Assembly: GCA_016212705.1 (NCBI GenBank)
Contig: JACREU010000070.1
Coordinates: 2,524-66,523, forward strand
Reading direction: 5' to 3'
From: Deltaproteobacteria bacterium
GTDB taxonomy: Bacteria; Desulfobacterota; GWC2-55-46
DNA: 64,000 nucleotides
Shown here: positions 1 to 18,550 of the stretch, piece after piece
Position numbering within the stretch: the stretch's first letter is position 1
How the letters are laid out: every line of letters begins with the position of its first letter
Translations under genes and position numbers: made by a program
The notes under the pieces: generated by a model
Told to the model about the DNA's origin: nothing
What the model saw: the letters and a program-made list of their open reading frames with translations, nothing else
The model's database searches: none

Positions 1-2
1 TT

Positions 3-677
3 CAAAGGGCTATATCCGAAGGCGCCGACGGGTTCGGAAGGCCCCACAGGTTATTGGGGCTCGTGGACTTGAAGCTCGCTGGCGTTTATCTCGAAGAAGG
101 GGCCGCAGAGCTTAAAAAGGCCTCTGAGATAGCCAGAGACGCGGACACCTGGCACGACTACGGGACGGTCCTCGGGAGGCTCAAGAAAAAGGGGGAGGCG
201 GCTGAGGCGTTCAAGAGCGCCATCGGCATCGACAAGGGGTTCAAGGACTCATACCTCGGGCTCGGGCTCGCTTACCACGACATGAAGGTGCACAGGGAGG
301 CGGTCTGCTACCTTAAGAAGTATATCACGATGGCCGACGACAAGGCGGACCTGGAGGCGTACAGGGCGCTCGGCCTCTCTTACTTCGAGCTCTCGAAGTT
401 CGAGGAGGCGGCCGCGTACCTCAAGAGGGCCGCGTTCCTTGAAAACGGCACAAAGGAAGCGGGGAACCTGTATTATTTTACGGCTAACGCGCTCGTCGAG
501 AGCGGTGAATACGAAGAGGCGGCCGTATATTACGAAAAGGCGTTGAGGCTCGACCCCGAGTATAAGGCCGTCTTTTTGAACCTCAGTGACAAGTTCAAGG
601 AAAACAGAAAAGGCGGGATACTGAAGGACGTCCTTGAAAAAACCGCCCGGACAGGCAAACGGCCAGATGGGCGATAA
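3..677 (+). CDS. TPR-repeat protein, probably 5'-truncated by the window edge
   Basis: Frame is open from nt 3 with no upstream stop, and the track start at 54 is a TTG. TPR-like 34-aa periodicity is visible (AEAFKSAIGIDKGFKDSYLGLGLAY; EEAAVYYEKALRLDPEY). Confidence 0.6.
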   Translation, partial: QRAISEGADGFGRPHRLLGLVDLKLAGVYLEEGAAELKKASEIARDADTWHDYGTVLGRLKKKGEAAEAFKSAIGIDKGFKDSYLGLGLAYHDMKVHREAVCYLKKYITMADDKADLEAYRALGLSYFELSKFEEAAAYLKRAAFLENGTKEAGNLYYFTANALVESGEYEEAAVYYEKALRLDPEYKAVFLNLSDKFKENRKGGILKDVLEKTARTGKRPDGR

Positions 678-2421
678 GACCCAAGGCGGGCTCGAAAGGT
701 ATCTGCCTCTTTTACTCATACCCCTCGGGTTTATCCTCTATTCAAACGTGCTCGGAGCGCCTTTCGTCTACGACGACGAAGGCTACATCGTAACGAACCT
801 CCAGATAACATCTCTCAGGAACTTCCTCGACTTCTCCGGCACGAGGTACATAGGTTTTTTGAGCTTCGCCCTCAATTACGCGGTCGGCGGCCTCGTGCCC
901 TTCGATTTTCACCTTACGAACATAGTCATACATATCGCGAACGCGCTCCTCGTTTACGCGCTTGTGCTGACGGTCTTCAGGACGCCTGCCATGCGCGGCG
1001 CGGAGGAAAAGGGCGTGGCAATCTTCGCGGCCTTTACGGCCTCCGTCATATTCCTCTCTCACCCCATAGAGTCGCAGGCCGTCTCCTACGTGACCCAGAG
1101 GTTCACATCCCTCTGTACGTTTTTCTATCTACTCTCGTTGTTTTTTTACGCTAAGTGCAGGATGGCGCGGGAAGGGAGCAGGGGGTGGCTCGCCATGTAT
1201 GTCGCCTCGCTCGTTGCTACTGTCGTTGCCATGAAGACAAAGGAGATAAGCTTTACTATACCTTTCATGATCGTCCTCCTTGATCTCGTTTTTTTCAGTG
1301 ACGGGTTCAGGGAAGGCAGGTGGATGAGGGTCCCGTTCTATCTTACGCTCCTAATAATACCGCTCTCTGTCCTCGGCCCCGATATCGGCCTCTTTGCAGA
1401 CCACGGCACGAACGCCGAGCACTTGAGGGGCCTGCAGGTCCGCGACATCGGGAAGCTCTCCAAGGTCGCTTATCTACTTACCGAGTTCAGCGTCGTCGTC
1501 ACTTACTTGAGGCTCATCTTCTTTCCGGTGAACCAAACGCTTGAATACGATTATCCTCTGTCGCATTCGTTCTTCGACCCCTCTGCGCTCCTTTCGTTTC
1601 TCTTCCTTCTCTCAATGGCAGGGGTTGGTACATACGCGCTCTTCAAGTCGAGAAAGGGCGGGAGCGCCTGGGGCGCACTATTCTCGTTCGGCATCTTCTG
1701 GTTCTTTCTGGCGTTGTCGGTCGAATCGACGGTTATACCGATCCAGGACGTCATTTACGAGCACAGGGTATATCTGCCGTCCGTCGGGATAATGGTCTCG
1801 TTTACGGCGGCGTTCTTTTATATTATTGACAGGGTCTCCTTGAAAATAGGCAGGGAGGTGTCAAGGGGCGCCGCTACTTTCATGCTCCTTCTTGTCATCT
1901 GCCCGTTGTTATTTACCTCTCTTTATCTGAGGAACCGAGTTTGGACAGACGAGATGACTCTCCTAAGCGACTCCATTTCAAAGGCCCCGGGGAAAACAAG
2001 GCTATATTACGCAAGGGGGCTTCTCTATCTTAAGAAAGGCAGGTACGGCGACGCCCTCGTGGACGCCAACGAGATACTTACACGTGAGCCGGGGGTGGCG
2101 GAGGCGCACAATCTTAAGGGTGTTGCGTATTCCGGCCTCGGAGACCACGAGAACTCGGCCAGGTCGTTTTCCGCGGCGCTCTCTATCAACAGCGGCTACG
2201 AAGTAGTCTATCTCAACCGGGCCATCTCCTACGCCGCCTCAGGCAGGTACAATGAGGCGTTGAAGGACCTCTCAAAGGCCGCCGTGATATATCCGGGGTT
2301 TTCGGAGTTCATCGTCTCCCCCATAGCCGGTAAGGCCTTCAAGGACCTTATAAGGGAATGCGAAAGGGAGGCCCTCCCCGGCTGTGAAAACCTTTTGACG
2401 GCCCCAAATAGTAAAAAGTGA
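634..2421 (+). CDS. GT-C fold membrane glycosyltransferase (PMT/TMTC/DUF1736-like) with C-terminal TPR domain
   Basis: The N-terminal ~430 aa are strongly hydrophobic and multi-spanning, with an acidic first-loop motif PFVYDDEGYIV typical of PMT/TMTC-type GT-C enzymes. The C-terminus has TPR repeats (GRYGDALVDANEIL, GDHENSARSFSAAL, GRYNEALKDLSKA). An alternative start is ATG 667. Confidence 0.6.
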   Translation: MKKPPGQANGQMGDKTQGGLERYLPLLLIPLGFILYSNVLGAPFVYDDEGYIVTNLQITSLRNFLDFSGTRYIGFLSFALNYAVGGLVPFDFHLTNIVIHIANALLVYALVLTVFRTPAMRGAEEKGVAIFAAFTASVIFLSHPIESQAVSYVTQRFTSLCTFFYLLSLFFYAKCRMAREGSRGWLAMYVASLVATVVAMKTKEISFTIPFMIVLLDLVFFSDGFREGRWMRVPFYLTLLIIPLSVLGPDIGLFADHGTNAEHLRGLQVRDIGKLSKVAYLLTEFSVVVTYLRLIFFPVNQTLEYDYPLSHSFFDPSALLSFLFLLSMAGVGTYALFKSRKGGSAWGALFSFGIFWFFLALSVESTVIPIQDVIYEHRVYLPSVGIMVSFTAAFFYIIDRVSLKIGREVSRGAATFMLLLVICPLLFTSLYLRNRVWTDEMTLLSDSISKAPGKTRLYYARGLLYLKKGRYGDALVDANEILTREPGVAEAHNLKGVAYSGLGDHENSARSFSAALSINSGYEVVYLNRAISYAASGRYNEALKDLSKAAVIYPGFSEFIVSPIAGKAFKDLIRECEREALPGCENLLTAPNSKK

Positions 2422-2457
2422 CAAAAATTGCCAGCTAATTGTGACAAAAATTGTCAG
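2418..2457 (+). promoter_or_regulatory. Tandem 17-nt repeat, candidate enhancer-binding-protein (PilR-like) site upstream of pilA
   Basis: GTGACAAAAATTGCCAG (2418-2434) and GTGACAAAAATTGTCAG (2441-2457) lie 23 nt apart. Each is a TGACA-N5-TGYCA palindrome. They sit about 62-100 nt upstream of the sigma-54 promoter. Confidence 0.4.
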
Positions 2458-2518
2458 TATAAGCGCAGGCCAGCCGGTCTCTAATTATAACCTGTTGAAT
2501 AGTAAGGATCTTTTACTT

Positions 2519-2534
2519 TGGCACGCTCGTTGCA
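2519..2534 (+). promoter_or_regulatory. sigma-54 (RpoN) promoter of the pilin gene
   Basis: TGGCACGCTCGTTGCA matches the TGGCAC-N5-TTGCA consensus exactly. It lies about 90 nt upstream of the pilin ATG. Confidence 0.7.
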
Positions 2535-2625
2535 AAGTAATACATTCAAGTGATTAAAGTTTTCCAGGTAACTGACGAAAACAATAAGAAAGCTTCTCAT
2601 CAAAAGTAAAAAGGAGGATGAAAAA

Positions 2626-3030
2626 ATGTTACAGCAGATGCTAAAAAGGATCAAGAGGGAGGAAGGCTTCACGCTCGTCGAGCTCTTGATAGTCGTGGCC
2701 ATCATAGCGATACTCGCGGCCATAGCCATCCCGCAGTTCACGAAGTACAGGCTCCGCGGCTACAAGTCGGAGATCGACTCTGACGCGAAGAACGCCTACA
2801 CAGCCGCGCAGGCGTACCTTACGGACAACCCGGGCGGCACTGTTGACTCCCTCGCCAAGCTGAAGACAGCCGGCTATCAGAAGTCGACTAACGTCCACTT
2901 CGAGTCCGCCACCATGACCCTTGCACTCGGCAACGTAAAGTTTACCAGCAACGCGCTCAACTCCGCGGCAAAGGAAAACAACGCGGTGGTCTTCTTCAAC
3001 GGCAAGCTTAACCTCCCGGCCTCGCCCTGA
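2626..3030 (+). CDS. pilA: Type IV pilin (prepilin with N-terminal methylation motif)
   Basis: Leader ends ...KREEG|FTLVELLIVVAIIAILAAIAIPQF, the class III signal/prepilin peptidase site. AGGAGG lies 8 nt upstream of the ATG. No Cys occurs anywhere in the protein. Confidence 0.9.
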   Translation: MLQQMLKRIKREEGFTLVELLIVVAIIAILAAIAIPQFTKYRLRGYKSEIDSDAKNAYTAAQAYLTDNPGGTVDSLAKLKTAGYQKSTNVHFESATMTLALGNVKFTSNALNSAAKENNAVVFFNGKLNLPASP

Positions 3031-3055
3031 CGCAAGCCTGGAATATATGGAAAAA

Positions 3056-3086
3056 GGAGGGACCTCAGGGTCCCTCCTTTTTTTTT
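3056..3086 (+). terminator. Rho-independent terminator after pilA
   Basis: GGAGGGACC (3056-3064), loop TCAG, GGTCCCTCC (3069-3077), followed by a T9 run. Confidence 0.8.
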
Positions 3087-3261
3087 GCCTCGGCCCGATG
3101 GCTTTGCCAATCTCTGAACCTATACGAAGGATTCGGCGCGCTCTCCGGAGGTTCACTTAAAACAGTTGTCTTATCTTGAGAGATTTATGATTATCAATAT
3201 GGAAGGGGAAAAGACAGGGGAAAGAGGCCGGGTCTTTCAACCCCGCCTTGTTCTGAAATGT

Positions 3262-4146
3262 CTACTTGCGCTCCAGATCTATGTCCTTGATATCAACGGA
3301 AGTATGCCCGAACTCCTGGAGCCTGTTCGTTTTGACCTTTATGTCGCACGGGTTGCAGTGGCCGAAGACGTGGCAGGGCCGGTATATGTCCTCGATGTCG
3401 AAGGCCGGGTCGATGATGTTGCCGACGGGGGCTCTGCCTTCGTAGAGGTCGCTGTGGCACCTGTAGACAGAGCCGTCCGAGCCCATGATGAGCTCGGTCG
3501 TCTTGCATAAGACGGACTTTTCGAACTTCTTGTCGCATGCGCCCTCGTATTTATAAGTGCCGTACATCCTGCCGTCGTGCTCGCCTAAAAACTCCTTGAA
3601 ACGGAAGTCTATGCCGAGCGCCTCGCATTTTTTCTGCGCCTCGCGTACGACCGCCTCCTGGGAGGGGTGGAGGACACCCCAGATGCCTATCGAGTACCCG
3701 GCCCTCTGGAGCTTCAAGACCTTTTCCACGAGCGGGTCGAGGGCCATCGTCTCCGGGTGAAAGCTTACGCGGATGGAGGCGTATGGGGAGTCTCTCTTTA
3801 CCCGGGCAGGGTCGACCTGCTTCATAAACTCATCCACGTCGAACTGGAGGTTCGTGAGGATGTCTATGTTCAACGAGGGCTTTATGTGGTTGATGATATA
3901 GATGAAGTCCTTGTGCAGGCTCGGCTCGCCGCCCTGGAAGGTTATGGGGAGGTCGTCGCGCGAGATTATCCTGTTTATGCCGCGCACCCACTCCTCACCG
4001 GAGAGGCGTTTTTTGACGACCCCGTCTCTTCCGAAGCGGTTTATGCAGTAAGAGCAGGACAGGTTGCAGGCGAGCGTAAAGAACGCGGCTATGTAGTTGT
4101 AGTGTCCGGGTATCCTTATGGGTTTCAGGTCCGTCATATGCGTCAC
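3262..4146 (-). CDS. Radical SAM enzyme with Cys-rich C-terminal (SPASM/twitch-like) region
   Basis: CNLSCSYC (CX3CX2C) near the N-terminus. The C-terminal cysteines are C..C...GSDGSVYRC...C.....CNPC. The start overlaps the upstream GT9 stop by 4 nt. Confidence 0.8.
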   Translation of the reverse strand: MTHMTDLKPIRIPGHYNYIAAFFTLACNLSCSYCINRFGRDGVVKKRLSGEEWVRGINRIISRDDLPITFQGGEPSLHKDFIYIINHIKPSLNIDILTNLQFDVDEFMKQVDPARVKRDSPYASIRVSFHPETMALDPLVEKVLKLQRAGYSIGIWGVLHPSQEAVVREAQKKCEALGIDFRFKEFLGEHDGRMYGTYKYEGACDKKFEKSVLCKTTELIMGSDGSVYRCHSDLYEGRAPVGNIIDPAFDIEDIYRPCHVFGHCNPCDIKVKTNRLQEFGHTSVDIKDIDLERK

Positions 4147-5075
4147 TCCTGGAGCAGTTTGTCGATCTCGGTTAAGACCGTTTGGGGTTTTATCTCATAC
4201 ATGCACGGTGTTTCCTTGACGCATGTCGTCGATAGGCACGGCAGACAGTCGTATTCCTTTGTGGGCAGTAGCTTTACGCCGTTCTTCACATAGACCTCGC
4301 TGGAAAGGGTCGGGCCGAAGAGGGCGACTATTTTTTTATCGAGCGCGTGGGCTATGTGGAGGCCGAGGCTGTCGTTCGTGACGAGCAACCTGCACGAGTT
4401 TACCCACTCGATGTACTCTTCGATCGATTTAAGGCCCTGTTGCCATGAGATGGTGTACCTGTCGCCTACGAGCGCCTCCAGCTCTTTCCAGTATTCCGGC
4501 GGCCACGCCTTTATCGGCCATTTTTCTCCGACGTTGTGGTTGAAGCCTATGTCGTATATTTCCTCAGACGAGGGCTGGTAGCCTATCGTCGGTATCTCGC
4601 CCTGCCACTTGGAGCCTATCATCTCAAAGAGGAAGTCTTCCCAGTATTTTTTGTTGGCGAGCTTGTCCTTCTGGCTCAGGCACAATTCGAGGACGTGTTC
4701 GCTCCCGTCGTAGGCGAGCGCCGAGCCTGTGTCGGGGTCGAACCTGAAGCCGTACCTCCTCCAGGCGGTGAGGGAGTCCGCGAAGGCGCAGATGCCCGCG
4801 ACCTTCTCGAGGTTCACGACCGTATCAAAGCGCTCCGCGCGCAGTTGCAGGACGGTCGTCAGGTCATAGGGCATGATCCTCTGGATGTAGGGGTTGCCCT
4901 TAAGGAGCGCTATCGCCTTTTCATCGACGAGCCACGTGACATGCGCGTCCTTGAACCTGTTAAGGAGGACGGTCGAGCGGAGCACGTCCCCGAGGCTCGT
5001 CTTCCTGCTTATCTCGCCTACGAGCGTTTCCGAGTAGCCGAGTTTTATTATAAGGACCCTTTGCACGTTACCCAT
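4143..5075 (-). CDS. Glycosyltransferase family 9 (heptosyltransferase-like)
   Basis: N-terminus RVLIIKLGYSETLVGE...GDVLRSTVLL and C-terminus LVTNDSLGLHIAHAL..KIVALFGPT resemble RfaF/RfaC-type GT9 enzymes. Confidence 0.7.
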   Translation of the reverse strand: MGNVQRVLIIKLGYSETLVGEISRKTSLGDVLRSTVLLNRFKDAHVTWLVDEKAIALLKGNPYIQRIMPYDLTTVLQLRAERFDTVVNLEKVAGICAFADSLTAWRRYGFRFDPDTGSALAYDGSEHVLELCLSQKDKLANKKYWEDFLFEMIGSKWQGEIPTIGYQPSSEEIYDIGFNHNVGEKWPIKAWPPEYWKELEALVGDRYTISWQQGLKSIEEYIEWVNSCRLLVTNDSLGLHIAHALDKKIVALFGPTLSSEVYVKNGVKLLPTKEYDCLPCLSTTCVKETPCMYEIKPQTVLTEIDKLLQE

Positions 5076-5103
5076 CGTGAAAACCCCTTCCGCAAAAATT
5101 ATC

Positions 5104-5619
5104 TCATTTTTCGGCTAATCCATCCACAATCTTTAAGCGCGATATTTCCTTGAGCGCGTCCTCGTGGACGGCGGCCGGGCGCAGGCCCATCCTCTCGAAG
5201 CGCCTTTTTCTAATGATGTATTCGATGATGGAGTTCGCCCTGAGCCTGAATATGTTGAGGCGGAGCAAAAAGGCCATATCGCAAAAAATGTGCAATACGA
5301 GCCCGAGAAAGACCGCAAATAGGGGCGCGGAGCCGAGCCAGAGAGAAACGGCGAAGAGCGCCATGACGAATTCGACGGTGTGGAACGCCTCGAAGTTAAG
5401 GAAGTCGGGCCTCCCCCATGAGTGCATAAGCGCCTCGTGGTAGCGGAACATCTTCGTAACGCTGAAATCCCTGAAGCCGTTGTGATGGAGGTACTCGAGG
5501 TAGTGGTCAACGTCTATGAGTACCGATCCAACGAAAAGGAAGGCCGCGTCCACGCCGATCGCTGGGTACAGGACGACTGAGGCAAAGCCCCCGAGTATCA
5601 CGTGGTCCGTGAGCCTCAT
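5104..5619 (-). CDS. Small integral membrane protein, tentatively YdjM/DUF457-like metal-dependent hydrolase
   Basis: About 4 hydrophobic segments, an N-terminal DH... and a LIDVDHYLEY motif. It overlaps the upstream gene's stop by 4 nt. The family assignment is tentative. Confidence 0.45.
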   Translation of the reverse strand: MRLTDHVILGGFASVVLYPAIGVDAAFLFVGSVLIDVDHYLEYLHHNGFRDFSVTKMFRYHEALMHSWGRPDFLNFEAFHTVEFVMALFAVSLWLGSAPLFAVFLGLVLHIFCDMAFLLRLNIFRLRANSIIEYIIRKRRFERMGLRPAAVHEDALKEISRLKIVDGLAEK

Positions 5620-7112
5620 TTTCCCTTGAGGGTTTTAAGCCCCTCATCCTTCGCCAGTATCTCTTCCGAGTGCTTGAAGTTCTCGAGGACGAAGCTCTCG
5701 TATATGCCGCGTAGCGTATTTACGAACGAGAATTTCATCGGGTATATCTTTGTCTTCACCATATAGGCCTTTACGAGATAATACATGAGGAAGTAAAGCC
5801 TCGGGAATGGGAGTTTTATGAGGGTGTTCACGATAAAGTCCCTCGTCCACGGCTTCCAGAGGCAGACGGTGGAGAGCAGAGAGAGGTTCCTCTGGAGGAG
5901 CTTTTCCCTTTCCGTAAAGCACTTCAGGGGCGATGTGGACTGGTAGCTCATGTGGAGCTTGTCGAAGTCGCCGTCGAAGTCGCCCCTCTTTATCGCGTAG
6001 TTGGCGAGCTCCGTGCCTGGGTAGGGGAAGAAGAGCGGGAATTCGCCCAGCGCCACCCTGCACCTCAAGTTAAGGTCTAAGGACTCAATGTCTTCGGCGA
6101 GCGAGGTGCCTGGTATGGCGAAGATGGTGTTCGAGAAAGTCGGGACGCCGTACTTGTGGCAGAGGTCAAAGGCGTCGGTCATCGTCTCCTTCGTCATGTT
6201 CCGCTTCAATACTTCGTTCCGCACCTTGTCGTTCCCGCTCTCAATGGACATCGACATGGAGGCGAGCCCGGCCTTCTTGAGCTTCTTCATGACGGAATCC
6301 GTCAAGAGGTTCGCGCGCATGAGGCAGTGGAACGGCACGCCTATCTCTTTCGGGTATCTCTCGGAGAACTCATCGAGCCATTCGTCGTCCTTCAGGACGA
6401 ATATGTCGTCGTAGAACTTTATGAACTGCGTCTCGTATCTGCTCTTCAAGTGCTTGAGCTCGGAGATGACGCGCTCAACGCTCATGCGCGAGGCGAGCGG
6501 CCCTTTGCCCTTGTACAGCATGTTGTACCTGTGGTTGAAGCAGTAGGTGCACTTGTACGGGCAACCGCGGCCCACCATGAACGAGCGCATGGGGAAACGC
6601 CCAAGGCGCGTCGCGGAGTAGAAGAGGTCGCGGTCGAGAAACGGGAGGTCGTCGAGGGCGCGCCTCCTCTCCCTCATAAAGGGCGGCTGGCCTTTCTTGA
6701 AGTTGTTCCGGGTTACGATATTGGGGATGTCGTCAAAGGGAGAGCCGCTCTCGATGGCGGAGAGGAGTTCCGGCCACGCGTCGTCGCCTTCGCCGGTGCA
6801 GAGCGCGTCGAAGGGGTGCCGCTCGATTATCTCCGGGAAGAATGTCGCGTGCGGGCCGCCTATTACGCTCTTGACATCGGGCATCATCCCCTTTATGAAG
6901 TCGTTGGCCGCGATGTAGTACTTGTGCTCGCCGGTCTTCGCGCTGAAGGCGACGATATCCGGCGAGAAGCCCCGGACCTTCTTTTCAAGGTCGCCGTCGG
7001 CGAGCACCGCCACAGAGGTCGAGTGCCCCTTTTCCTTGGCGAGCGCGGATAGGAGCATGATACCCATCGGGTCTATGTACTCGACATCCTTTATTACGAA
7101 GAGTATCTTCAA
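5616..7112 (-). CDS. B12-binding-domain radical SAM enzyme (class B)
   Basis: The N-terminal Rossmann-like region (KILFVIKDVEYIDPMGIMLLSA...IGGPHATF) is followed by GRGCPYKCTYC (CX3CX2C). Confidence 0.85.
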   Translation of the reverse strand: MKILFVIKDVEYIDPMGIMLLSALAKEKGHSTSVAVLADGDLEKKVRGFSPDIVAFSAKTGEHKYYIAANDFIKGMMPDVKSVIGGPHATFFPEIIERHPFDALCTGEGDDAWPELLSAIESGSPFDDIPNIVTRNNFKKGQPPFMRERRRALDDLPFLDRDLFYSATRLGRFPMRSFMVGRGCPYKCTYCFNHRYNMLYKGKGPLASRMSVERVISELKHLKSRYETQFIKFYDDIFVLKDDEWLDEFSERYPKEIGVPFHCLMRANLLTDSVMKKLKKAGLASMSMSIESGNDKVRNEVLKRNMTKETMTDAFDLCHKYGVPTFSNTIFAIPGTSLAEDIESLDLNLRCRVALGEFPLFFPYPGTELANYAIKRGDFDGDFDKLHMSYQSTSPLKCFTEREKLLQRNLSLLSTVCLWKPWTRDFIVNTLIKLPFPRLYFLMYYLVKAYMVKTKIYPMKFSFVNTLRGIYESFVLENFKHSEEILAKDEGLKTLKGK

Positions 7113-7148
7113 GACGGCTCGGACCTTTTGGAGGTAGTCTTTAGAGAT

Positions 7149-7919
7149 TTATTCATTGACAACGGCCCTTCTCGTGGGGGTGCCGTACTTGGCGCGCTCG
7201 GTTACGCGCACCTCCCAGAAGAGCGCGAAAATGGCGTTAACTACGCTTAAGATGTTCTTGATTCTAAAGGCCTTGGTCTTGCCAGAGGCCCTTGCGGTTA
7301 TATCGACCCCGACTTCGACGAAGCTCGAGCCGGAGCGGAGCAACCTTACGAGTATCGCGGCCATGTAGGCGAAACCCCAGGTCTTCAAAGGGACTTTCTT
7401 CAAGAGCGAGCTCTTAAGGAGGCAGGTGCCGTTATAGTACCTGACGTTCAGCCCGAAGAGCGCGTTTATGAAGATTACGAATACCCACGATATGACGCGC
7501 CTCGATAATGCGCGGACCTCGGTATTTGCGGTGTACGGTATTATGCAGTCGGCCTCTCCGGCCCTGCTTATTACGCGCGTTATGGCCTCAGCCGGTATCT
7601 CGTTGTCGCCGGGGACCATTATTATATAGTCCATCGCGGCCCTCCTTACGCCTTCCGTGTAGTTGTAGCCGAAGCCCATGTTACGCGGGTTGTGTATGAC
7701 CTTTACGCCCTTCTCTTTCTTCTTTATCTCTTCGGCGAGGGCGCCGGTGCCGTCGGTCGAAAAATCATTGAATATTAGTATCTCGAAGTCGCTGAACTTG
7801 TTGGAGGCTGAGAGGGCGGCCTTTATCGCGTCTATCGTCCCCTTGAGGTTGCCCGCTTCATTCAGGCAGGGGACAATGACCGTTATGGAGGGTTTTCTTC
7901 CGTTCGCCTTGGTCCCCAT
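7149..7919 (-). CDS. Glycosyltransferase family 2, polyprenyl-phosphate sugar synthase-like (DPM1/GtrB/ArnC type)
   Basis: ITVIVPCLNEAGNL, NDFSTDGTG and VPGDNE motifs, with C-terminal hydrophobic helices. Confidence 0.75.
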   Translation of the reverse strand: MGTKANGRKPSITVIVPCLNEAGNLKGTIDAIKAALSASNKFSDFEILIFNDFSTDGTGALAEEIKKKEKGVKVIHNPRNMGFGYNYTEGVRRAAMDYIIMVPGDNEIPAEAITRVISRAGEADCIIPYTANTEVRALSRRVISWVFVIFINALFGLNVRYYNGTCLLKSSLLKKVPLKTWGFAYMAAILVRLLRSGSSFVEVGVDITARASGKTKAFRIKNILSVVNAIFALFWEVRVTERAKYGTPTRRAVVNE

Positions 7920-7922
7920 CGG

Positions 7923-8969
7923 TCAACCCTTCTTGACGGCCCTTCTGACGGCCGCGGCGATTTCAATTTTTCCGGGGTAATAGGCCTTTTCGAGCGCGGG
8001 GCTCGCCGGCGTGGGCGCCTCCGGGAGGTTCACCCGCTCAGGCGCGCTCTTCAGCGCGCCGAACCCGTCCTCGACGACCCTCGCGATTATCTCAGCGCCT
8101 ATGCCGGTCTCCTTCCAGCCGGTGTCGGCTATGACGAGGCGGCCTGTCCTGGCGACCGACCCGAGTATGAGCGGCGCGTCCAGCGGCTTCAAGGTCCGCA
8201 GATCAATTACCTCGCACTCTATCCCTTCGTCTTTGAGGATCTCAGCCGCGCTCATCGCCTCATAGACCATGTATGAGACGGCGACGATCGTCGCGTCGCT
8301 CCCCTTGCGTCTTATAATCGCCTTTCCAATCGGCACGGTGTACGGCTCAGAGGGGACGTGGCCCATGTGCTCGTATAACCAGCGGTGCTCGATGAATACT
8401 ACGGGGTTGCCATCGTAGACCGAGGCCCTTAGCAACCCCTTTGCGTCGTACGGGGTCGCGGGCATCACGACCTTGAGGCCGGGGATGTTCGTGAAGAGGG
8501 ACTGAAGGGACTGGGAGTGCTGTGCGGCGGAGCCCCAGCCCCTGCCTATCATCGACCTTATCACTATCGGCACCGAGACCTTGCCCCCGAACATATAGCG
8601 CCATTTTGCCGCGTGGTTTATTATCTGGTCAAGGGACAGGGGAATGAAGTCGACGCGCATGTGGACGAGTATCGGACGCATCCCGGCCACAGCCGCGCCT
8701 ATTGCGACGCCGGTTATGCCGTTTTCGGCAAGAGGCGAGTCCATGACGCGCTCCCTCCCGAATTTGAGATGAAGGCCCCTTGTCGAGCCGAATACCCCGC
8801 CGGCGTCGTCTATGCCCTCGCCGATGACAAATACAGTCTCGTCGGCCTCAAGCAGTTGGGAGGTCGCCTCCAGGAGCGCGTCTTTATAGGCGAGACCGCG
8901 CAGGTCCTTGTTCTCCGAGAGGGCCTTTTCGAACTCGGCCTTATTGCTGTAAACCTTTGTCCACGGCAT
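7923..8969 (-). CDS. ThDP-dependent 2-oxoacid dehydrogenase E1 component, beta subunit (AcoB/PdhB-like)
   Basis: Transketolase-like pyrimidine-binding and C-terminal domains (VFVIGEGIDD.GGVFG.T.GL, PIVIRS..GRGWG.AAQHSQS). Confidence 0.85.
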   Translation of the reverse strand: MPWTKVYSNKAEFEKALSENKDLRGLAYKDALLEATSQLLEADETVFVIGEGIDDAGGVFGSTRGLHLKFGRERVMDSPLAENGITGVAIGAAVAGMRPILVHMRVDFIPLSLDQIINHAAKWRYMFGGKVSVPIVIRSMIGRGWGSAAQHSQSLQSLFTNIPGLKVVMPATPYDAKGLLRASVYDGNPVVFIEHRWLYEHMGHVPSEPYTVPIGKAIIRRKGSDATIVAVSYMVYEAMSAAEILKDEGIECEVIDLRTLKPLDAPLILGSVARTGRLVIADTGWKETGIGAEIIARVVEDGFGALKSAPERVNLPEAPTPASPALEKAYYPGKIEIAAAVRRAVKKG

Positions 8970-8971
8970 GG

Positions 8972-9988
8972 TTAGAGAGTCTCCTTTACCGGCGCGTAGA
9001 CGTCCGTGAGGAGGTCCGAGAGAGGAGGGTACTCGCTGTCTTTGGCGAATTTTACCGCATCGTCTATTTCCCCGGCAATGGAAGCGGCTATCTCCTTAAG
9101 TTCGTTTTCAGCAACGATGTTCCTTGAGAGGATGAATTCCCTCATAACCTTTACAGGACACCTCTCCATCCAGTAGATAAGCTCTTCCTTTGGCCTGCAT
9201 CCCTTCTCGTAATCGGCATCAGGCCCGACGTGTCCCTTCCACCTGTATGTCTTCGCCTCTATGAGGGACGGGCCGCCGCCTTTCCTGGCGCGGTTGACGG
9301 AATCCTGCGCGGCCTTGTAGACCTCGATCGCGTCGTTGCCGTCTATGCAGACGCCGTGCGAGTCGAAGGCAGAGGCGGAATCCGATATCCTGCAGGCCGA
9401 CTGCCTCGCGGACTGGTGGGAGTTTGTCGCGTAGAAGTTGTTCTCGCAGAAGAAAACGACGGGGAGCTTCTTTAAAGAAGCGAAGTTGAATGACTCGTAG
9501 AGCGCGCCTTCGTCATACGCCCCGTCCCCGAAGAAGATGACCGTTACGCGGTCTTCTTTCCTGATGGATGAGGCGAGCGCCGCGCCGACCCCCATGGGTA
9601 TGCCGCCCGCGACTATCGCGGAGGTCCCGAGTATCCCGTTCTCGACGTCTATGATGTGCATCGAGCCGCCCTTGCCCCTGGAACAACCCGTTGCCTTGCC
9701 GTAGAACTCGGCCATGAGCGGCCTCATCGCGCTCCCCTTGGCGAGCGCGTGTCCGTGGCCCCGGTGGTTGGAGAAGACATAGTCCTCTTTCCGAAGATTA
9801 AGGCAGACCCCCGTCGCTATCGCCTCCTGGCCGATGCAGAGGTGGACCGGGCACTTCATCTCCTGCTCCGGGTAGAGGTCGACGATCCTTTCCTCGAACA
9901 TGCGTATGCGGCACATCATCGCATACATGTCGATGAGCGTCTTCCGCGTTAATGTGGGGAGTCCGTATTTAAGGATATCTTCTTTCAT
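8972..9988 (-). CDS. ThDP-dependent 2-oxoacid dehydrogenase E1 component, alpha subunit (AcoA/PdhA-like)
   Basis: ThDP motif FFGDGAYDEGALYESFNFASLKKLPVVFFCENN, plus YRWKGHVGPD. It sits directly upstream of the beta subunit with a 2-nt gap. Confidence 0.85.
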   Translation of the reverse strand: MKEDILKYGLPTLTRKTLIDMYAMMCRIRMFEERIVDLYPEQEMKCPVHLCIGQEAIATGVCLNLRKEDYVFSNHRGHGHALAKGSAMRPLMAEFYGKATGCSRGKGGSMHIIDVENGILGTSAIVAGGIPMGVGAALASSIRKEDRVTVIFFGDGAYDEGALYESFNFASLKKLPVVFFCENNFYATNSHQSARQSACRISDSASAFDSHGVCIDGNDAIEVYKAAQDSVNRARKGGGPSLIEAKTYRWKGHVGPDADYEKGCRPKEELIYWMERCPVKVMREFILSRNIVAENELKEIAASIAGEIDDAVKFAKDSEYPPLSDLLTDVYAPVKETL

Positions 9989-10004
9989 GGGGCTAAGGGC
10001 GTCC

Positions 10005-11126
10005 TCAGATGAAGTTGACGTGGAGGGAGGGGTTCTTGAGCTCCCAGAGGTAGCGGTTCACCTCGTCCATCCTGCAGTTCCTCCTGCACTCGGCTGTGTC
10101 GAGTTCCCTTGAGGCGAACTCCATCACCTTTTTTCTCTTTTCGCCCTTCCATACCGCCTCGAAGGTCTCCTCGTTGATGTTCCCGAGGAGGAAGCGGTCG
10201 TCTCCTAAAAACGCGCTACACGCCCATACCCCGCCCCCGGCGTCTATGTATGCCCAGAAGGGGAGCGCCATGCAGTGCGAATAGCCCCTGCCCTTTTCTT
10301 CGAGTTTCCTCATGGCGTTAGACCTGAATATGACCTGAAAACGATTGTCAGATATTTTTTTGAGCTCATCGTTCAAATGCATGTAGTCGGCGTAGCTGAA
10401 ATCCTCGTACTGGTGAGTCTTGGACTTCAAGTGCTGTGAGTAGGATTTTATCACGAGGTAGTCGGCTCCTATCTCCTTCGCCTTTTTCGCGAGCAGGACC
10501 GCTTCATTCGCGTTTTCCGGCAGGAGTATCATCTGCATCCCGACGGTCGAGGCGAGGTGATTCGCGTCCCTGAATCTGACCGCCTTCGAGATGTTCCCGA
10601 TTACCTTATCGAAGTCCTCTTCCTTTGTCCTGTGGATTTTCGCGTAGGTCTCCTTTGTGGCCCCGTTTATGGAGACCTTTATCCATGTGATGGAGGCGAG
10701 GGTCGCTTCCATCAGCTTTTCCGTGAAAAGCACGCCGTTGGAGGTGATGGCGACGTCTACGCCTGAGGCCTTTGTGTGGTTTATTATCCCGTTGATATCC
10801 TTATGGAGGAAGGGCTCGCCCTCGCCGGCGTACATGATCGATTTTACGCCCAAACGCCCCATTTCGGTCAGGCGGTCTTTGAGGATGGCGGCGTCCAGGT
10901 GCCTCGGGTTGTATTCCATGTAATCGAGGGCGCAGTAGGTGCACCTGTGGTTGCATGCGCCGATAGGAGAAACCTCCATATATATCGGATAGATATCGGC
11001 GCCCTTGAGCCAATCGGCGACCCTGTCGACATGAAAGACCAGTTTATGGCTGTCTATCCTGAATTCGTCCATGGAGTGGATATACTCTCCCTTATCCGGC
11101 GTAAAGCCCATTAAAAAAGATAACAT
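10005..11126 (-). CDS. Radical SAM enzyme with SPASM-like C-terminal Cys cluster
   Basis: CNHRCTYC (CX3CX2C), then C-terminal HCMALP...GGGVWACSAF...TAECRRNCRMD. The real start may be the internal Met (MDEFRIDSHKL..., about 11072). Confidence 0.8.
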   Translation of the reverse strand: MLSFLMGFTPDKGEYIHSMDEFRIDSHKLVFHVDRVADWLKGADIYPIYMEVSPIGACNHRCTYCALDYMEYNPRHLDAAILKDRLTEMGRLGVKSIMYAGEGEPFLHKDINGIINHTKASGVDVAITSNGVLFTEKLMEATLASITWIKVSINGATKETYAKIHRTKEEDFDKVIGNISKAVRFRDANHLASTVGMQMILLPENANEAVLLAKKAKEIGADYLVIKSYSQHLKSKTHQYEDFSYADYMHLNDELKKISDNRFQVIFRSNAMRKLEEKGRGYSHCMALPFWAYIDAGGGVWACSAFLGDDRFLLGNINEETFEAVWKGEKRKKVMEFASRELDTAECRRNCRMDEVNRYLWELKNPSLHVNFI

Positions 11127-11227
11127 AGGTATGATACCTTAACAATATCAAAATTTTTCTTAAAATCTCATTAAAAGTTGTTAAAAAATGAGGGCTTTTG
11201 ACCCTTGTAGCAGTGGGCGCGACCCCA

Positions 11228-11236
11228 TGATATAAT
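11228..11236 (+). promoter_or_regulatory. Possible extended -10 promoter for copA
   Basis: TGATATAAT (TGnTATAAT) lies 32 nt upstream of the copA ATG. No convincing -35 element is present. Confidence 0.35.
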
Positions 11237-11267
11237 ATGTGATGGACATGAACCGCAAGGAGAGGTA

Positions 11268-13946
11268 ATGGCGATAGACCCGGTCTGCGGGATGGACGTA
11301 GACCCTGAAAAGGCAAAAGGCGAGAGCCTGTATAACGGCGAAAAGGTGTACTTCTGCGCCCTCCGGTGCAAGGAGAGGTTCGACGCGGAGCCTGAAAAAT
11401 ACCTCGCGGGCTTGTGCGCGTTGGAGAAACTGCCGCGTGTAAACGCGCATCCTTTACAGGACGCGCGCCATTCCCCCAAGAACGTCAGGAGGGTATCCCT
11501 CCCGATAACAGGCATGTCCTGCGCCTCGTGCGCAACGAAGATAGAGAAGGGGCTTACCGGATTATCCGGCATAGTAGAGGCCTCGGTCAACTTCGCGGCA
11601 GAGAAGATCAACATCTCCTATAACCCGGATGACGTACACGTCTCGGACTTTGTAAAGGCCATAAAGGAGCTCGGCTATGGCGCCGGCGTGGCGTCCGTCT
11701 CTATCGCGGTAAAGGGGATGTCCTGCGCCTCGTGCGTCGAAAAAGTCACAAAGGCCTTGAACGCCGTCGATGGTGTGGTAAGCGCCTCGGTCAACTTTGC
11801 GACTGAAAAGGCGACGGTAAATTTCCTCCCGACCGTCGTCGGGGTAGACGCGCTCATAAAGGCGATCAACTCAGGCGGGTACAAGGCCTTGTACCAGTCT
11901 GATGAGGAAGACCTCCTCGCGAGAGACGAGAGGGAGAAGAAGGAGGAGGAGAAGAGGCTCCGGCTCCGATTCATCGTCGCCGCGATAGTCGCCGTCCCGG
12001 TGATGACAGGGTCTTTCGCCGGGATGATCCCGCGGGTGCCGTCTTTTTTAGGGAATAACTATCTTCTCTTCGTCCTCGCGACCCCTGTACAGTTCTGGGC
12101 AGGATGGCGTTTTTACAGGGGGGCGTTCATAGCCGCGCGGCATTTTACGACGGACATGAACACGCTCATAGCCGTCGGCACATCAGCCGCTTATCTTTAC
12201 AGCGCGGCAATGACTTTCTTTCCGAATTTCTTCGAGGCTCTCGGGTTCTCAACCGGCGTCTACTTCGATACCGCGACAGCCATTATCGCGCTCATACTCC
12301 TCGGCAGGCTCCTTGAGATGAGGGCAAAGGCGCAGACCTCGGAGGCGATAAAGAAGCTCATAGGCCTCTCTCCCAGGACGGCAAGGGTTGTGCGCGGCGG
12401 AGTCGAACTCGACATCCCGGCCTCCGACGTCGTCGAGGGGGAGATCGTCATCGTGAGGCCCGGCGAGAAGGTCCCTGTGGACGGAAAGGTCTTCGATGGG
12501 TCCTCGTCAATTGACGAATCGATGATAAGCGGAGAGTCGCTCCCGGTCGACAAAGAGCCGGGCGACATTGTAATAGGCGCGACGATCAACAAGACGGGCT
12601 CTTTCAAATACAGGGCCACTAAGGTGGGGAAGGATTCCACCCTCTCCCAGATAATAAGGCTCGTCGAGGAGGCCCAGTCCTCGAAGCCGCCGATAGCGAG
12701 GCTCGTTGACGTGATAGCGGGCTGGTTCGTCCCTGTTGTCATTGCGCTTGCCTCTCTTACATTCGTAATCTGGCTAATATTCGGCCCCGCGCCCGCGTTC
12801 ACCTACGCGCTCCTTAACTTCATCGCCGTACTCATCATAGCCTGCCCGTGCGCAATGGGGCTTGCCACCCCCACCTCCATCATGGTCGGGACCGGCAAGG
12901 GGGCGGAGAACGGGATACTCATAAGGGGAGGGGAGTCGCTCGAGACGGCGCACAAGTTGAACGCAATAGTGTTTGACAAGACCGGGACGCTCACCAGGGG
13001 CGAGCCCGCGATTACTGATATCGTGGTTGCGCACGATGTCACGATAGCGTCAAAGGGGCTCTCAATGGAAGAGGGCGTCCTCTTCTATGCGGCTTCCGCC
13101 GAAAAGGGCTCCGAGCACCCGATAGGCGAGGCGATAGTTAAAAAGGCGTCGGCAAAGGGGATAGCGCTTTCAAACCCCATAGGCTTTAACGCCCTTCCCG
13201 GCCACGGGCTTATCGCTGAGGTGGACGGGCGGGTGGTCATACTCGGCAACCTCAAGATGATGGCCGATAGGAATATCCCAATAGAGAATCTTCTGAAAGA
13301 AACCGAGAGGCTCTCAGACGAGGGAAAGACGCCGATATTCGTCGCCGTTGACAATAAAGCGGTCGGCGTTATCGCGGTAGCCGACACGCTGAAGGAGAAC
13401 TCTAAGGAGGCGGTTTCTGCCCTTAAAAAGATGGGGCTCACGGTCGCCATCATCACGGGCGACAACCGGAGGACGGCGACCGCCATCGGGAAAGAACTCG
13501 GCGTCGACAGAATACTCTCGGAGGTCCTCCCCGAGGACAAGGCCAGGGAGGTAAAGAAGCTCCAGGACGAGGGGAAAAAGGTAGCGATGGTAGGCGACGG
13601 CATAAACGACGCGCCCGCGCTCGCGCAGGCCGACGTAGGCATAGCCATAGGCACCGGGACGGACGTCGCGATGGAGGCTTCCGACATAACCTTGATAGGC
13701 GGGGACTTAAGGGCCATCGTCACCGCTATCGCTCTTAGCAGGGCGACTATAAGGAACATCAGGCAGAACCTCTTCTGGGCGTTCTTCTATAACGTCCTCC
13801 TCATACCCGTCGCGGCAGGGGCGCTCTATCCGTTTACAGGCATGCTCCTCGACCCGATGTTCGCGGCGGCGGCGATGGGGCTGTCGTCCGTTAGCGTAGT
13901 TACGAACGCGCTCAGGCTTAAGAGGTTCAGACCCGCCTTGACCTGA
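11268..13946 (+). CDS. copA: Copper-translocating P1B-type ATPase with N-terminal YHS/TRASH-like domain and two HMA domains
   Basis: DPVCGMDVD...[11 protein letters not shown]; two GMSCASC metal-binding sites; CPC in the TM helix; DKTGTLT phosphorylation site; GDGINDAP hinge. Confidence 0.95.
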
Positions 13947-13987
13947 TAGTTTAGCCATGATAAAGGAGATGAGAGGAGACCGCGGCC

Positions 13988-14332
13988 ATGAAGAGACTGT
14001 CGTTTGCGTTATTGCTCTGCCTTGCCATTTCATCCCTTACGTTTGCCGATGATGTCGCCTTTAAAAAGGGCGAGGAGGCGTTCAAAAAGAACTGCGTAAA
14101 GTGCCACGGTGATAAGGCCTCGGGCACGGAGTCTGGTCCCCCGCTCATACACAAGATATACCACCCGAACCACCACTCGGATATGAGTTTTCGCTGGGCC
14201 GTTGAAAGGGGCGCGCGCTCGCACCACTGGAGGTTCGGCGACATGCCGAAGGTAGAGGGCGTGTCCAAGGAAGATACGGAAAACATAATTATTTATATCC
14301 GTACTCTCCAGAAAGAGGCGGGGATATTTTAA
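13988..14332 (+). CDS. Secreted mono-haem c-type cytochrome
   Basis: Signal peptide MKRLSFALLLCLAISSLTFA, haem motif CVKCH and a distal Met candidate (GDMP). Its stop overlaps the next start (TAATG). Confidence 0.8.
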   Translation: MKRLSFALLLCLAISSLTFADDVAFKKGEEAFKKNCVKCHGDKASGTESGPPLIHKIYHPNHHSDMSFRWAVERGARSHHWRFGDMPKVEGVSKEDTENIIIYIRTLQKEAGIF

Positions 14333-18326: not shown

Positions 18327-18498
18327 TATTGACGTGAAGGCCCCGTAGCTTGCTTGCGGGGCCTGTAACAGTAGATTATCCATTAAGCCAGCTGATCTAA
18401 AAGCCTGTCATGTTTTCAGCAAAACACCCCGTTTTACCTCAAAAAAACCATTCCAAACCGTAACTCGCCCCTGTCTCGGCCATTGACCTTAAGGTAAA

Positions 18499-18514
18499 TG
18501 GCACGGTTGTTGCT
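18499..18514 (+). promoter_or_regulatory. sigma-54 promoter upstream of the TPR-kinase-regulator operon
   Basis: TGGCACGGTTGTTGCT (GG-N10-GC), 37 nt upstream of ATG 18551. Confidence 0.6.
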
Positions 18515-18550
18515 ATATATCCAGGCAACTTAAAAGCAAGGCGGGTCAGG

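Follow-up and report, generated by a model that had tools for sequence, protein, structure and literature searches.

Two pairs of proteins that resemble the E1 subunits of pyruvate dehydrogenase (PDH), AviB1/AviB2 of the avilamycin pathway and Pau11/Pau12 of the paulomycin pathway, add a two-carbon branch to a 4-keto sugar; the two-carbon donor is presumed to be pyruvate, and a separate enzyme must make the sugar carbonyl (PMC4425429). A flavoenzyme dependent on thiamine diphosphate (ThDP), YerE, is their equivalent for yersiniose. Here, we analyze an operon of eight genes on the minus strand, at 3262-11126 of a 64,000-nt stretch of DNA (the window) from a Deltaproteobacteria bacterium (contig JACREU010000070.1), in which an E1 alpha/beta pair stands among three radical S-adenosylmethionine (radical-SAM) enzymes, a membrane protein and two glycosyltransferases of families 9 and 2 (GT9 and GT2). 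Likened by gene content, the known pairs and this one share the arrangement of an E1 alpha/beta pair without E2/E3 inside a cluster of sugar and glycosyltransferase genes. An earlier annotation made from the letters of the window (the original prediction) had noted that such pairs are proposed to add two-carbon branches to sugars, and the two antibiotic pathways provide that precedent. The known pairs belong to actinomycete antibiotic pathways, act on thymidine diphosphate (TDP)-deoxyhexoses and receive their keto group from NAD-dependent dehydratases, whereas the window operon has radical-SAM, GT9 and GT2 partners, lies in envelope loci of anaerobes and has a probable heptose as substrate.

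Radical-SAM enzymes acting on sugars are also known. DesII, BtrN, BlsE and AprD4 make or use a sugar radical, with a carbonyl, a deoxy center or a decarboxylation as the outcome; DesII, a deaminase/dehydrogenase of TDP-4-amino-4,6-dideoxyglucose, turns a TDP-sugar into a 3-keto sugar, and BtrN oxidizes a secondary alcohol. DesII is the best fold match of the first protein of the operon, and AprD4 is the closest to the enzyme with a B12-binding-type domain. The ADP-heptose pathway (GmhA, HldE, GmhB, HldD; WaaC/WaaF) and the routes that modify GDP-heptose for Campylobacter capsules are related through the GT9 family and through GmhA/HldE-like genes, the commonest neighbors of that first gene in other genomes; they differ in that the proteins associated with our cassette all stay under equivalog cut-offs and in that the HldE-like ones have reversed domains. 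The heptose-tailoring enzymes known to us are NAD(P)-dependent short-chain dehydrogenases/reductases (SDR) and cupin epimerases, not radical-SAM or ThDP enzymes. For the final transfer, GtrA/GtrB/GtrC and ArnC/ArnT represent three-component periplasmic glycosylation, with a GT2 polyprenyl-phosphate-sugar synthase, a flippase and a glycosyltransferase of the GT-C type. Finally, TfpW of Pseudomonas aeruginosa is a GT-C enzyme with 11 predicted transmembrane (TM) helices, a DDX motif and a periplasmic tetratricopeptide repeat (TPR) domain, which adjoins pilA and glycosylates the pilin with a lipid-linked sugar from a separate cluster (bioRxiv 10.1101/2020.04.19.049825).

Each piece of the window operon comes from a known superfamily, and a nucleotide-sugar tailoring cluster that feeds envelope glycosylation is already known as a kind. 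What is new is that a radical-SAM enzyme is paired with an orphan ThDP two-carbon transferase, the substrate being probably a heptose, that this pairing extends over many phyla of mostly uncultured anaerobes, and that a TfpW-like enzyme belonging to a pil cluster is linked to it. We propose that the operon makes a modified sugar, probably of the nine-carbon class, from a heptose for the cell envelope, a reading to which we give about an even chance. The wider claim, i.e., that this is a widespread and undescribed route in which radical-SAM and ThDP two-carbon transfer convert heptose to branched or chain-extended C9 sugars in more than ten phyla, attached here to type IV pili by a TfpW-like GT-C enzyme, is tentative, and we would expect at least some part of it to fail.

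The eight open reading frames (ORFs) lie at 3262-4146, 4143-5075, 5104-5619, 5616-7112, 7149-7919, 7923-8969, 8972-9988 and 10005-11126, and we number them in the direction of transcription, so that gene 1 is the last of this list. They form one tightly packed operon, with 4-nt overlaps at 4143-4146 and 5616-5619 and gaps of 2, 3, 16, 28 and 36 nt at the remaining junctions; packing, coordinates, overlaps and gaps are all as originally described. The three CX3CX2C motifs noted at the outset (CNLSCSYC, CPYKCTYC and CNHRCTYC) are present, and the three proteins all match Radical_SAM (PF04055) at 38.4, 74.2 and 69.4 bits (cut-off 29.5); the remaining domains that had been read from the sequence, i.e., B12-binding-type, GT9, GT2 and E1 alpha/beta, were matched by Pfam search as well. 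None of the eight proteins reached an NCBIfam equivalog cut-off, and the sole pass was that of the E1 beta protein, at 329.1 bits, to the generic subfamily model PRK09212 (cut-off 321). These ORFs are real genes rather than chance frames, because homologues of every protein number in the hundreds to thousands and the order of the genes is conserved.

Conservation of the set was followed in five relatives and then more widely. An identical order of eight genes is found in four of them (L001, L063, L064 and L068); in the fifth (L065), seven genes were called and the ORF of the 171-aa membrane protein was not detected. L068 is collinear with positions 1-12292 of the window at 92-93% nucleotide identity. 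Across the five, identities range from 63 to 97% for seven of the proteins, and for the 171-aa protein they are 95% (L068) and 48-53% (L001, L063 and L064). A Cu-ATPase gene always flanks one side of the operon; TPR membrane proteins, with or without a pilin gene, flank the other where the contig extends that far (not in L065). Beyond this clade, 46 further loci with 38-68% identity to gene 1 were found in species-representative genomes, all of them metagenome-assembled genomes (MAGs), whose labels, which may be wrong, read Omnitrophota, Nitrospirota, Elusimicrobiota, Planctomycetota/Sedimentisphaerales, Campylobacterota, Beta-, Gamma- and Zetaproteobacteria, Fibrobacter, Lachnospiraceae and DPANN archaea. 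Parts of the cassette recur around gene 1 in 48 loci from more than ten phyla.

ORFs were called in all loci, clustered and scored against the window proteins, and the counts that follow refer to the 50 loci of at least 8 kb. The product of gene 1, which we call the anchor enzyme, is present in 48 of them, and 38 of these 48 carry a ThDP pair, either E1 alpha/beta (alpha subunit in 22 loci, beta in 21) or a split transketolase (N-terminal subunit in 16, C-terminal in 17). A second SPASM paralogue was found in 26/50 loci, GT2 in 18/50, the B12-domain enzyme in 8/50 and the 171-aa protein in 5/50. GT9 is present in 15/50, and the small radical-SAM enzyme of gene 8 accompanies it in 15/15; look-ups anchored on the latter enzyme returned the same partners. 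A homologue of the membrane domain encoded at 634-2421, discussed below, adjoins the cassette in 12/50 loci. The cassette is therefore real, modular and old, and the synteny test set by the original prediction came out in its favor, with identical order in four relatives and partial sets across phyla. One locus, L067, reads GT9, anchor enzyme, E1 alpha, E1 beta, GT2, second SPASM paralogue, small radical-SAM enzyme and TPR protein.

Other arrangements were seen along the way. In a Nitrospirae MAG (L066, 3175-10849), E1 alpha, E1 beta, GT9 and the small radical-SAM enzyme follow thiS-thiG-thiE-thiC, with one HD-domain gene on the opposite strand in between, and the other half of the set (TPR-membrane protein, anchor enzyme, GT2 and second SPASM paralogue) is located on another contig, L050, of that MAG. 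Between GT2 and GT9/small radical-SAM enzyme lies a slot that holds the B12-domain radical-SAM enzyme and the 171-aa metal-hydrolase-like protein in the clade of the window (5104-7112), the second SPASM paralogue with two small ORFs lacking Pfam matches in Omnitrophota (L031 and L032), and the SPASM paralogue alone in Desulfuromonadaceae (L012) and in L067. A search of plasmids for the GT9-type cassette by means of the small radical-SAM enzyme returned no match.

Gene 1 (10005-11126, minus strand) encodes a radical-SAM enzyme with a twitch or partial-SPASM C-terminus, matched by Pfam Radical_SAM and by SPASM (35.5 bits, cut-off 21.5). Its start is most likely Met19 (11072), giving 355 aa, rather than 11126, because nearly all homologues are 354-356 aa long and begin with MDEFRIDSHK, and because a GGGAGAG stands 12 nt upstream. 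In 355-aa numbering, the invariant cysteines are C40/C44/C47 and, in the C-terminal part, C267, C285, C329 and C333, with the pattern CX12GX4C...CX3C. A full SPASM domain was taken as the seven-Cys pattern CX9-15GX4C...CX2CX5CX3C...C and a twitch domain as its first half only, so that four invariant C-terminal cysteines fit one auxiliary cluster better than a full SPASM. Genes 1 and 8 both look like twitch or partial-SPASM enzymes; of the two Cys-rich, SPASM/twitch-like C-termini claimed at first, the richness in cysteine holds for both, with four invariant residues in gene 1 and five in gene 8.

The anchor family is large (4609 proteins at E ≤ 1e-10). The best 120 homologue clusters are 60-95% identical, and the best clusters come mostly from MAGs of Thermodesulfobacteriota/"Deltaproteobacteria" and are named only "radical SAM protein"; an exact-sequence look-up of gene 1 found no record. 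The AlphaFold2 (AF2) model of gene 1 has a predicted local distance difference test (pLDDT) score of 84.5; by fold, DesII matches it best (8hzv, E 3e-16, TM-score normalized to the query 0.67-0.69), followed by SkfB, SuiB, BlsE, anSME, BtrN, PqqE, viperin and MoaA; a sequence search of the PDB with gene 1 matched BlsE and DesII. The identity to DesII is only 15-17%, and gene 1 carries four extra invariant cysteines that suggest a twitch-like auxiliary cluster; to our knowledge, DesII is without such a cluster. No operon protein reached the NCBIfam models for sugar enzymes of the DesII, BtrN, BlsE or AprD4 types. Because the fold is DesII-like and the additional cysteines fit the twitch cluster of radical-SAM dehydrogenases, we propose gene 1 as the enzyme that would form a carbonyl on the heptose. 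Matches to the anti-phage viperin (pVip) system in PADLOC reach the N-terminal radical-SAM core only (e.g., profile positions 12-133 of 262), and that assignment was rejected.

The orphan pair follows directly. Gene 2 (8972-9988, minus strand) is a ThDP-dependent E1 alpha-like subunit with the motif GDG-X26-NN (Pfam E1_dh, 4e-71); its NCBIfam score for PDH_E1_alph_y is 336, under the cut-off of 394, and its closest solved relative is human PDH E1 alpha (1.6e-55). Gene 3 (7923-8969, minus strand) is the E1 beta-like subunit, with Transket_pyr and Transketolase_C domains in Pfam, and is the protein that passes PRK09212. Between them, they keep the ThDP motif, the catalytic His (KGHVG) and the E1 beta Glu (SPLAE). 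No E2 or E3 gene was found among the window ORFs scanned (those of the first 22.8 kb and, farther on, the larger ones), as originally claimed, nor in the flanks of the operon in L001, L063, L064, L065 and L068, which were covered over 10 kb or as far as the contig reached. Should this pair be the E1 of a common pyruvate or acetoin dehydrogenase, placed among unrelated genes by chance, its high similarity to PDH E1 and its preserved catalytic residues would be readily explained. We give that possibility hardly any weight: the partner subunits were not found in the ORFs and flanks just named, the alpha subunit stays under its equivalog cut-off, the pair is fixed between a radical-SAM enzyme and GT2 with gaps of 2-16 nt, and a split transketolase replaces it in orthologous cassettes.

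What the substrate may be is suggested by the neighborhoods in other genomes. Genes for a GmhA-like SIS protein and/or an HldE-like kinase/adenylyltransferase adjoin gene 1 in 27 loci, the GmhA-like gene being the immediate neighbor of the anchor enzyme in many loci from different phyla. These neighbors are often joined by a gene of the "GSU2086 family", matched by NF052581 (370 bits, cut-off 250). GSU2086 itself is flanked in Geobacter sulfurreducens by hldE (GSU2085) and gmhA (GSU2087), and all three behave like envelope genes in transposon sequencing (Tn-seq; PMC5585712). Over the 50 loci, no locus has both GT9 and GmhA/HldE-like neighbors, 15 have GT9 only, 27 have GmhA/HldE only and 8 have neither; the mutual exclusion (0/15 versus 27/35) gives a Fisher p of 2e-7, uncorrected for phylogeny. 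GT9 is the family of heptosyltransferases that use ADP-heptose. Two independent and mutually exclusive heptose-related neighbors point to heptose as the common metabolite, and the substrate of the cassette is probably a heptose. The HldE/SIS arrangement also occurs in a Thermodesulfobacteriota fragment with 68% identity (L045).

In the one cultured carrier found, the isolate Solidesulfovibrio carbinolicus DSM 3852, the HldE-type version is present on plasmid pDCAR1 (L069, 66846-97907), with an anchor enzyme of 54.5% identity. One arm there contains a NeuB-family gene, a PfkB kinase, a hypothetical gene, SIS, the anchor enzyme and two more radical-SAM genes; the divergent arm contains pseF, a cytidylyltransferase, methyltransferases, FabG, a split transketolase, an ATP-grasp gene, pseB and pseC, and the region as a whole looks like a nonulosonic-acid or surface-glycan island. 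RefSeq names these proteins "radical SAM protein", "SIS domain-containing protein", "PfkB family carbohydrate kinase" and "hypothetical protein". The HldE-like proteins of L002, L004 and L069 (about 510 aa) have the adenylyltransferase domain at the N-terminus and the PfkB kinase at the C-terminus; E. coli HldE has the opposite order. All 15 GT9-type loci are diderm by their record titles, and the HldE-type loci include MAGs labeled Nanoarchaeia and Lachnospiraceae.

The remaining operon proteins would handle and further modify the sugar. Gene 4 (7149-7919, minus strand; Pfam Glycos_transf_2) is a GT2 of the polyprenyl-phosphate-sugar synthase type, whose best PDB sequence match is dolichol-phosphate mannose (DPM) synthase (5mlz, residues 11-246, full length), followed, among others, by ArnC and GtrB. 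Polyprenyl-phosphate glycosyltransferases supply periplasmic GT-C transferases. The type assigned to it from the start is thus supported; its membrane anchoring is less certain, because only one strongly hydrophobic segment is predicted (137-155). Gene 7 (4143-5075, minus strand; Pfam Glyco_transf_9) is a divergent member of the heptosyltransferase family, matched by PF01075 (42.3 bits, cut-off 22) and by 3tov and 1psw from the PDB, in each case in its C-terminal half or region only. Orthology to the known core enzymes does not follow from the NCBIfam scores, 43.8 against a cut-off of 134.6 for WaaC, 37.3 against 185.3 for WaaF and 33.3 against 170.2 for WaaQ.

Gene 5 (5616-7112, minus strand) has the class B architecture of an N-terminal B12-binding-type domain (PF02310, 49.5 bits, cut-off 32.1, residues 12-116) followed by Radical_SAM (PF04055, residues 180-342). 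All its 27 NCBIfam matches are far under cut-off, the best being ApyD (101.5 against 750). Class B enzymes had been described in the first reading as typically C-methylases; the architecture agrees, no methylase subfamily is matched, and C-methylation is only one option for gene 5, because its closest solved sequence is the dehydratase AprD4 (1e-13) and then the methylase TokK (2e-9). Across loci it is accompanied by gene 6 (5104-5619, minus strand), the 171-aa membrane protein that the original prediction had already recognized as such, with 3-4 hydrophobic segments and an invariant His/Asp/Glu constellation (D5, H6, D36, D38, H39, H61, H80, E83, H110 and D114). Gene 6 matches no Pfam family above threshold; weak matches to Zn_dep_PLPC (0.0035) and YdjM (0.08), each in 2/5 members, suggest that it is possibly a YdjM/phospholipase-C-like metal-dependent hydrolase. 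Gene 8 (3262-4146, minus strand; Pfam Radical_SAM), the small radical-SAM enzyme, has invariant cysteines C27/C31/C34 and a Cys-rich, twitch-like C-terminus (C214-X10-G225-X4-C230 and C258-X5-C264-X2-C267) that gives no Pfam SPASM match. It has 2410 homologues at E ≤ 1e-5, annotated only as "radical SAM protein", and no other protein of the set is so well conserved from phylum to phylum (62-71% identity).

Downstream of the operon, on the plus strand, lies a type IV pilin gene, pilA (2626-3030; 134 aa, GFTLVELLIVVAIIAILAAIAIPQF), recognized in translation by a classical GFTLVELL... N-terminus; its orthologues in L001, L064 and L068 were called N_methyl. It has an exact sigma-54 promoter, TGGCAC-N5-TTGCA, at 2519-2534 on the plus strand (TGGCACGCTCGTTGCA), and sites of this type number 7 in the window against 0.76 expected. 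Upstream, ending 205 nt before pilA, the plus-strand gene at 634-2421 encodes a TfpW-like membrane protein and candidate GT-C, with about 10 TM segments and C-terminal TPR repeats (residues 430-560, its only Pfam matches) and an invariant F-x-x-D-D after TM1 (D47 and D48). The AF2 model of its membrane domain has a pLDDT of 80.6, and all five Foldseek matches with a probability above 0.9 are GT-C enzymes (ArnT, AglB, ALG12 and EmbC). A second large TPR membrane protein is cut by the window edge, which leaves its C-terminal TPR part (1-677, plus strand; Pfam TPR); it has 751 aa in L068. The left flank of L068 reads pilB, pilT, pilC, pilS, pilR, TPR751, TPR584 and pilA, followed by the operon in convergent orientation. 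A GT9-type cassette of Omnitrophota (L031) also has two pilin-like genes beside it, together with a homologue of the 751-aa protein.

By described architecture, this arrangement resembles the TfpW system of P. aeruginosa Pa5196/PA7, with a multi-TM protein bearing a DD motif and a C-terminal TPR beside pilA and a dedicated cluster for the lipid-linked sugar. It differs in that the window gene is upstream of pilA and not downstream, in that there are two TPR membrane proteins, and in the sugar route: that of TfpW leads to polyprenyl-phosphate-D-arabinofuranose by DprE-type chemistry, which is unrelated to a radical-SAM/ThDP/heptose route. The comparison with Gtr and Arn runs along similar lines. 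GT2 is closest to DPM synthase, ArnC and GtrB, the GT-C candidate matches ArnT best, and a small multi-TM protein is present; the latter has a metal-hydrolase-like His/Asp signature and not a GtrA fold, the donor sugar would be heavily tailored first, and the operon also has GT9. The original prediction had left the acceptor among LPS (lipopolysaccharide), lipid, pilin and flagellin; the pil cluster and the TfpW-like neighbor favor pilin, and synteny does not back flagellin. Taken on its own, the pilin is our preferred acceptor, at slightly below an even chance, and GT9 leaves LPS as a serious alternative.

Some further observations on this region are worth recording. The pilA unit (2519-3086) is complete, with sigma-54 promoter, ribosome-binding site, pilin and bidirectional terminator. 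The pilin orthologues of the relatives all end in Ser-Pro (..PASP, ..ANSP, ..SSPNP), which recalls the C-terminal Ser glycosylation of some pilins. The family of the 634-2421 protein has at least 2652 members at E ≤ 1e-5, all annotated only as "tetratricopeptide repeat protein", and the membrane domains of both TPR proteins (751 and 584 aa; L068, 1-11755) belong to no Pfam family. Flagellin glycosylation was considered and rejected, since the flagellar cluster lies about 12 kb away and no flagellar genes surround the operon in the fetched DNA of syntenic relatives.

From these elements we suggest the following route. An activated heptose (ADP-heptose or a heptose phosphate) would come from housekeeping GmhA/HldE encoded elsewhere in the genome. 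Gene 1 would abstract a hydrogen and generate a carbonyl by dehydrogenation or dehydration, much as DesII does on a TDP-sugar. The E1 alpha/beta pair would decarboxylate pyruvate on ThDP and pass the two-carbon unit to this carbonyl or to the sugar aldehyde, as in AviB1/AviB2 and Pau11/Pau12; in other lineages, a split transketolase in the same slot would add a glycolaldehyde unit or extend the aldose by two carbons. With either ThDP enzyme the arithmetic would be C7 + C2. Further tailoring of the product may fall to the two other radical-SAM enzymes (the B12-domain one and the small one) and to the metal-hydrolase-like membrane protein, in a slot exchanged between lineages. GT9 would transfer the heptose-type sugar from its nucleotide, GT2 would load sugar onto polyprenyl phosphate, and the TfpW-like GT-C/TPR enzyme or enzymes would transfer it in the periplasm, most probably to PilA. 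Gene content and synteny are what we observe; every chemical step of this scheme is inferred.

Several observations weigh against it. No hldE or gmhA was found among the same scanned ORFs of the window, so that heptose is read from other genomes and from GT9 membership, and in those genomes the neighboring HldE-like (176 against 521) and GmhA-like (75 against 209) proteins are both under their NCBIfam equivalog cut-offs. The scheme gives no reason for GT9 and GT2 to occur together and no role of its own to the small radical-SAM enzyme. At the acceptor end, the Foldseek scores of 634-2421 are weak (E 3e-3 to 0.35, TM-score 0.36-0.46), and a profile of its N-terminal domain matched no Pfam family or PDB sequence; an alignment of the full-length protein against the PDB was swamped by TPR proteins. 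Our confidence that it is a GT-C glycosyltransferase using a lipid-linked sugar is therefore moderate. Adjacency to a pilin gene is confined to the clade of the window (window, L001, L064 and L068) and L031, no pilin gene lies nearby in the other loci with a homologue of the TPR-membrane protein, and the operon and pilA are convergent and have promoters of different types. The association of the cassette with the GT-C candidate (12 loci) is broader than that with pilins.

Among the rival readings, the strongest keeps the same chemistry and has LPS as the acceptor: GT9 would put the modified heptose on the inner core or on another outer-membrane glycolipid, and the adjacency of pilA and the TPR genes would be incidental. 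GT9 is the family of the LPS heptosyltransferases, the 15 loci that carry it are all diderm by their record titles, most of the distant loci have no pilin gene nearby, and hldE, GSU2086 and gmhA of Geobacter behave like LPS genes in Tn-seq (PMC5585712). Set against this are the distance of gene 7 from the WaaC, WaaF and WaaQ cut-offs; a polyprenyl-phosphate-type GT2 and GT-C-like TPR proteins (12 loci), which are not needed for core assembly in the cytoplasm; the occurrence of the anchor enzyme in MAGs labeled archaeal or Lachnospiraceae, organisms that lack LPS; and the position of the TPR genes between pilR and pilA in the clade of the window. We judge LPS unlikely to be the acceptor, with an appreciable share of the probability all the same. 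A substrate other than heptose, such as another nucleotide-diphosphate hexose or a precursor of nonulosonic acid, with the HldE/GmhA neighbors serving a parallel sugar, would account for the HldE-like, GmhA-like and SDR neighbors staying under equivalog cut-offs, for the true CDP-glucose synthase (TIGR02623, 442 against a cut-off of 300) and 4,6-dehydratase-like genes of some loci, and for the cassettes among pseB/pseC/pseF/NeuB-type genes in Campylobacterales MAGs and on pDCAR1. It would leave aside the GmhA-like gene next to the anchor in many loci of different phyla, with GT9 as the alternative neighbor, and the exclusivity of the two is hard to explain unless both touch the same class of metabolite; we consider this substrate improbable, more so than the LPS acceptor.

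Far less probable still are two readings in which the product is not a sugar. Radical-SAM enzymes with SPASM/twitch or B12 domains are common as maturases of ribosomally synthesized and post-translationally modified peptides (RiPPs), the best NCBIfam match of gene 5 is ApyD, and SkfB, SuiB and PqqE are among the fold matches of gene 1, so that the enzymes might mature a RiPP or the pilin polypeptide itself. All such matches are far under family cut-offs, though, and the operon is without a gene for a precursor peptide, a RiPP recognition element (RRE) domain, a protease or an exporter; two glycosyltransferases and the ThDP pair are conserved partners, heptose genes recur, and the best fold match is a sugar enzyme. 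A membrane lipid (hopanoid-like, ladderane-like or other) has equally slight prospects as the target of the operon. Weak NCBIfam matches to HpnJ, HpnR, HpnH, HpnB and "lipid biosynthesis B12-binding/radical SAM protein" and the phospholipase-C-like signature of the membrane protein speak for it, but those scores are 4- to 10-fold under cut-offs, neither the window nor the syntenic loci contain squalene/hopene cyclase or fatty-acid genes, and the neighbors are genes of sugar activation. The modified heptose for the envelope, with pilin ahead of LPS as acceptor, is the reading that we retain.

The claim that no characterized pathway has this enzyme set agrees with the curated families, solved structures and literature searched, and literature searches combining radical SAM with heptose, transketolase, heptosyltransferase and SPASM found no described pathway. 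If our reading is correct, anaerobes would use a new logic for surface sugars, in which a radical-SAM enzyme activates a heptose and a ThDP-dependent enzyme then adds C2 to it, i.e., a route to "nonoses" independent of the phosphoenolpyruvate condensation that yields nonulosonic acids. Three conserved families, the 355-aa twitch radical-SAM, the 290-aa radical-SAM and the TPR-membrane proteins, would acquire a function, and an unseen glycan would be predicted on the type IV pili of Thermodesulfobacteriota, where pili matter for attachment and extracellular electron transfer. The module swaps (E1 alpha/beta for transketolase, second SPASM paralogue for B12-domain enzyme) would suggest glycan diversity and a supply of enzymes for unusual sugars.

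After the last gene of the operon stands a strong bidirectional intrinsic terminator common to it and pilA (3051-3086, both strands), a hairpin flanked by A and T runs with a dG of -24.9 kcal/mol on the minus and -27.8 kcal/mol on the plus strand (z-scores -4.2 and -3.8); within the operon, sites resembling terminators number 12, no more than in shuffles (10.0 ± 3.5). A sigma-70-like promoter candidate, TTGATA-18-TATGTT, lies at 11122-11151 on the minus strand, some 50 nt ahead of 11072, the start that we prefer, by consensus scan only. Sigma-54 control of the operon was rejected, since a pattern scan found no TGGCAC-N5-TTGC upstream of it, whereas pilA and the flagellar operons have such sites. 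The GC content of the operon (0.54-0.60) is similar to that of the rest of the window, and the idea of a horizontal-transfer island was rejected on that ground. Rfam and tRNA scans of the window found nothing.

The rest of the window holds genes of other systems. A Cu-transporting P-type ATPase with YHS/HMA domains, a cytochrome c (13988-14332) and a 169-aa GRDB-like (selenoprotein B family) fragment occupy 11268-14841; these three adjoin the operon in all close relatives, and no functional link is evident. Two sigma-54 activators, a histidine kinase and a TPR protein follow at 16890-22833, and a flagellar and chemotaxis supercluster extends up to 63983, with FliF, FliI, FlhA, FlhF, CheA, a methyl-accepting chemotaxis protein with a PilJ-type N-domain, FlgI and FlgK. 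Within the region of this supercluster (16890-63983) lies the gene of a 645-aa HEAT-repeat protein, at 40134-42071.

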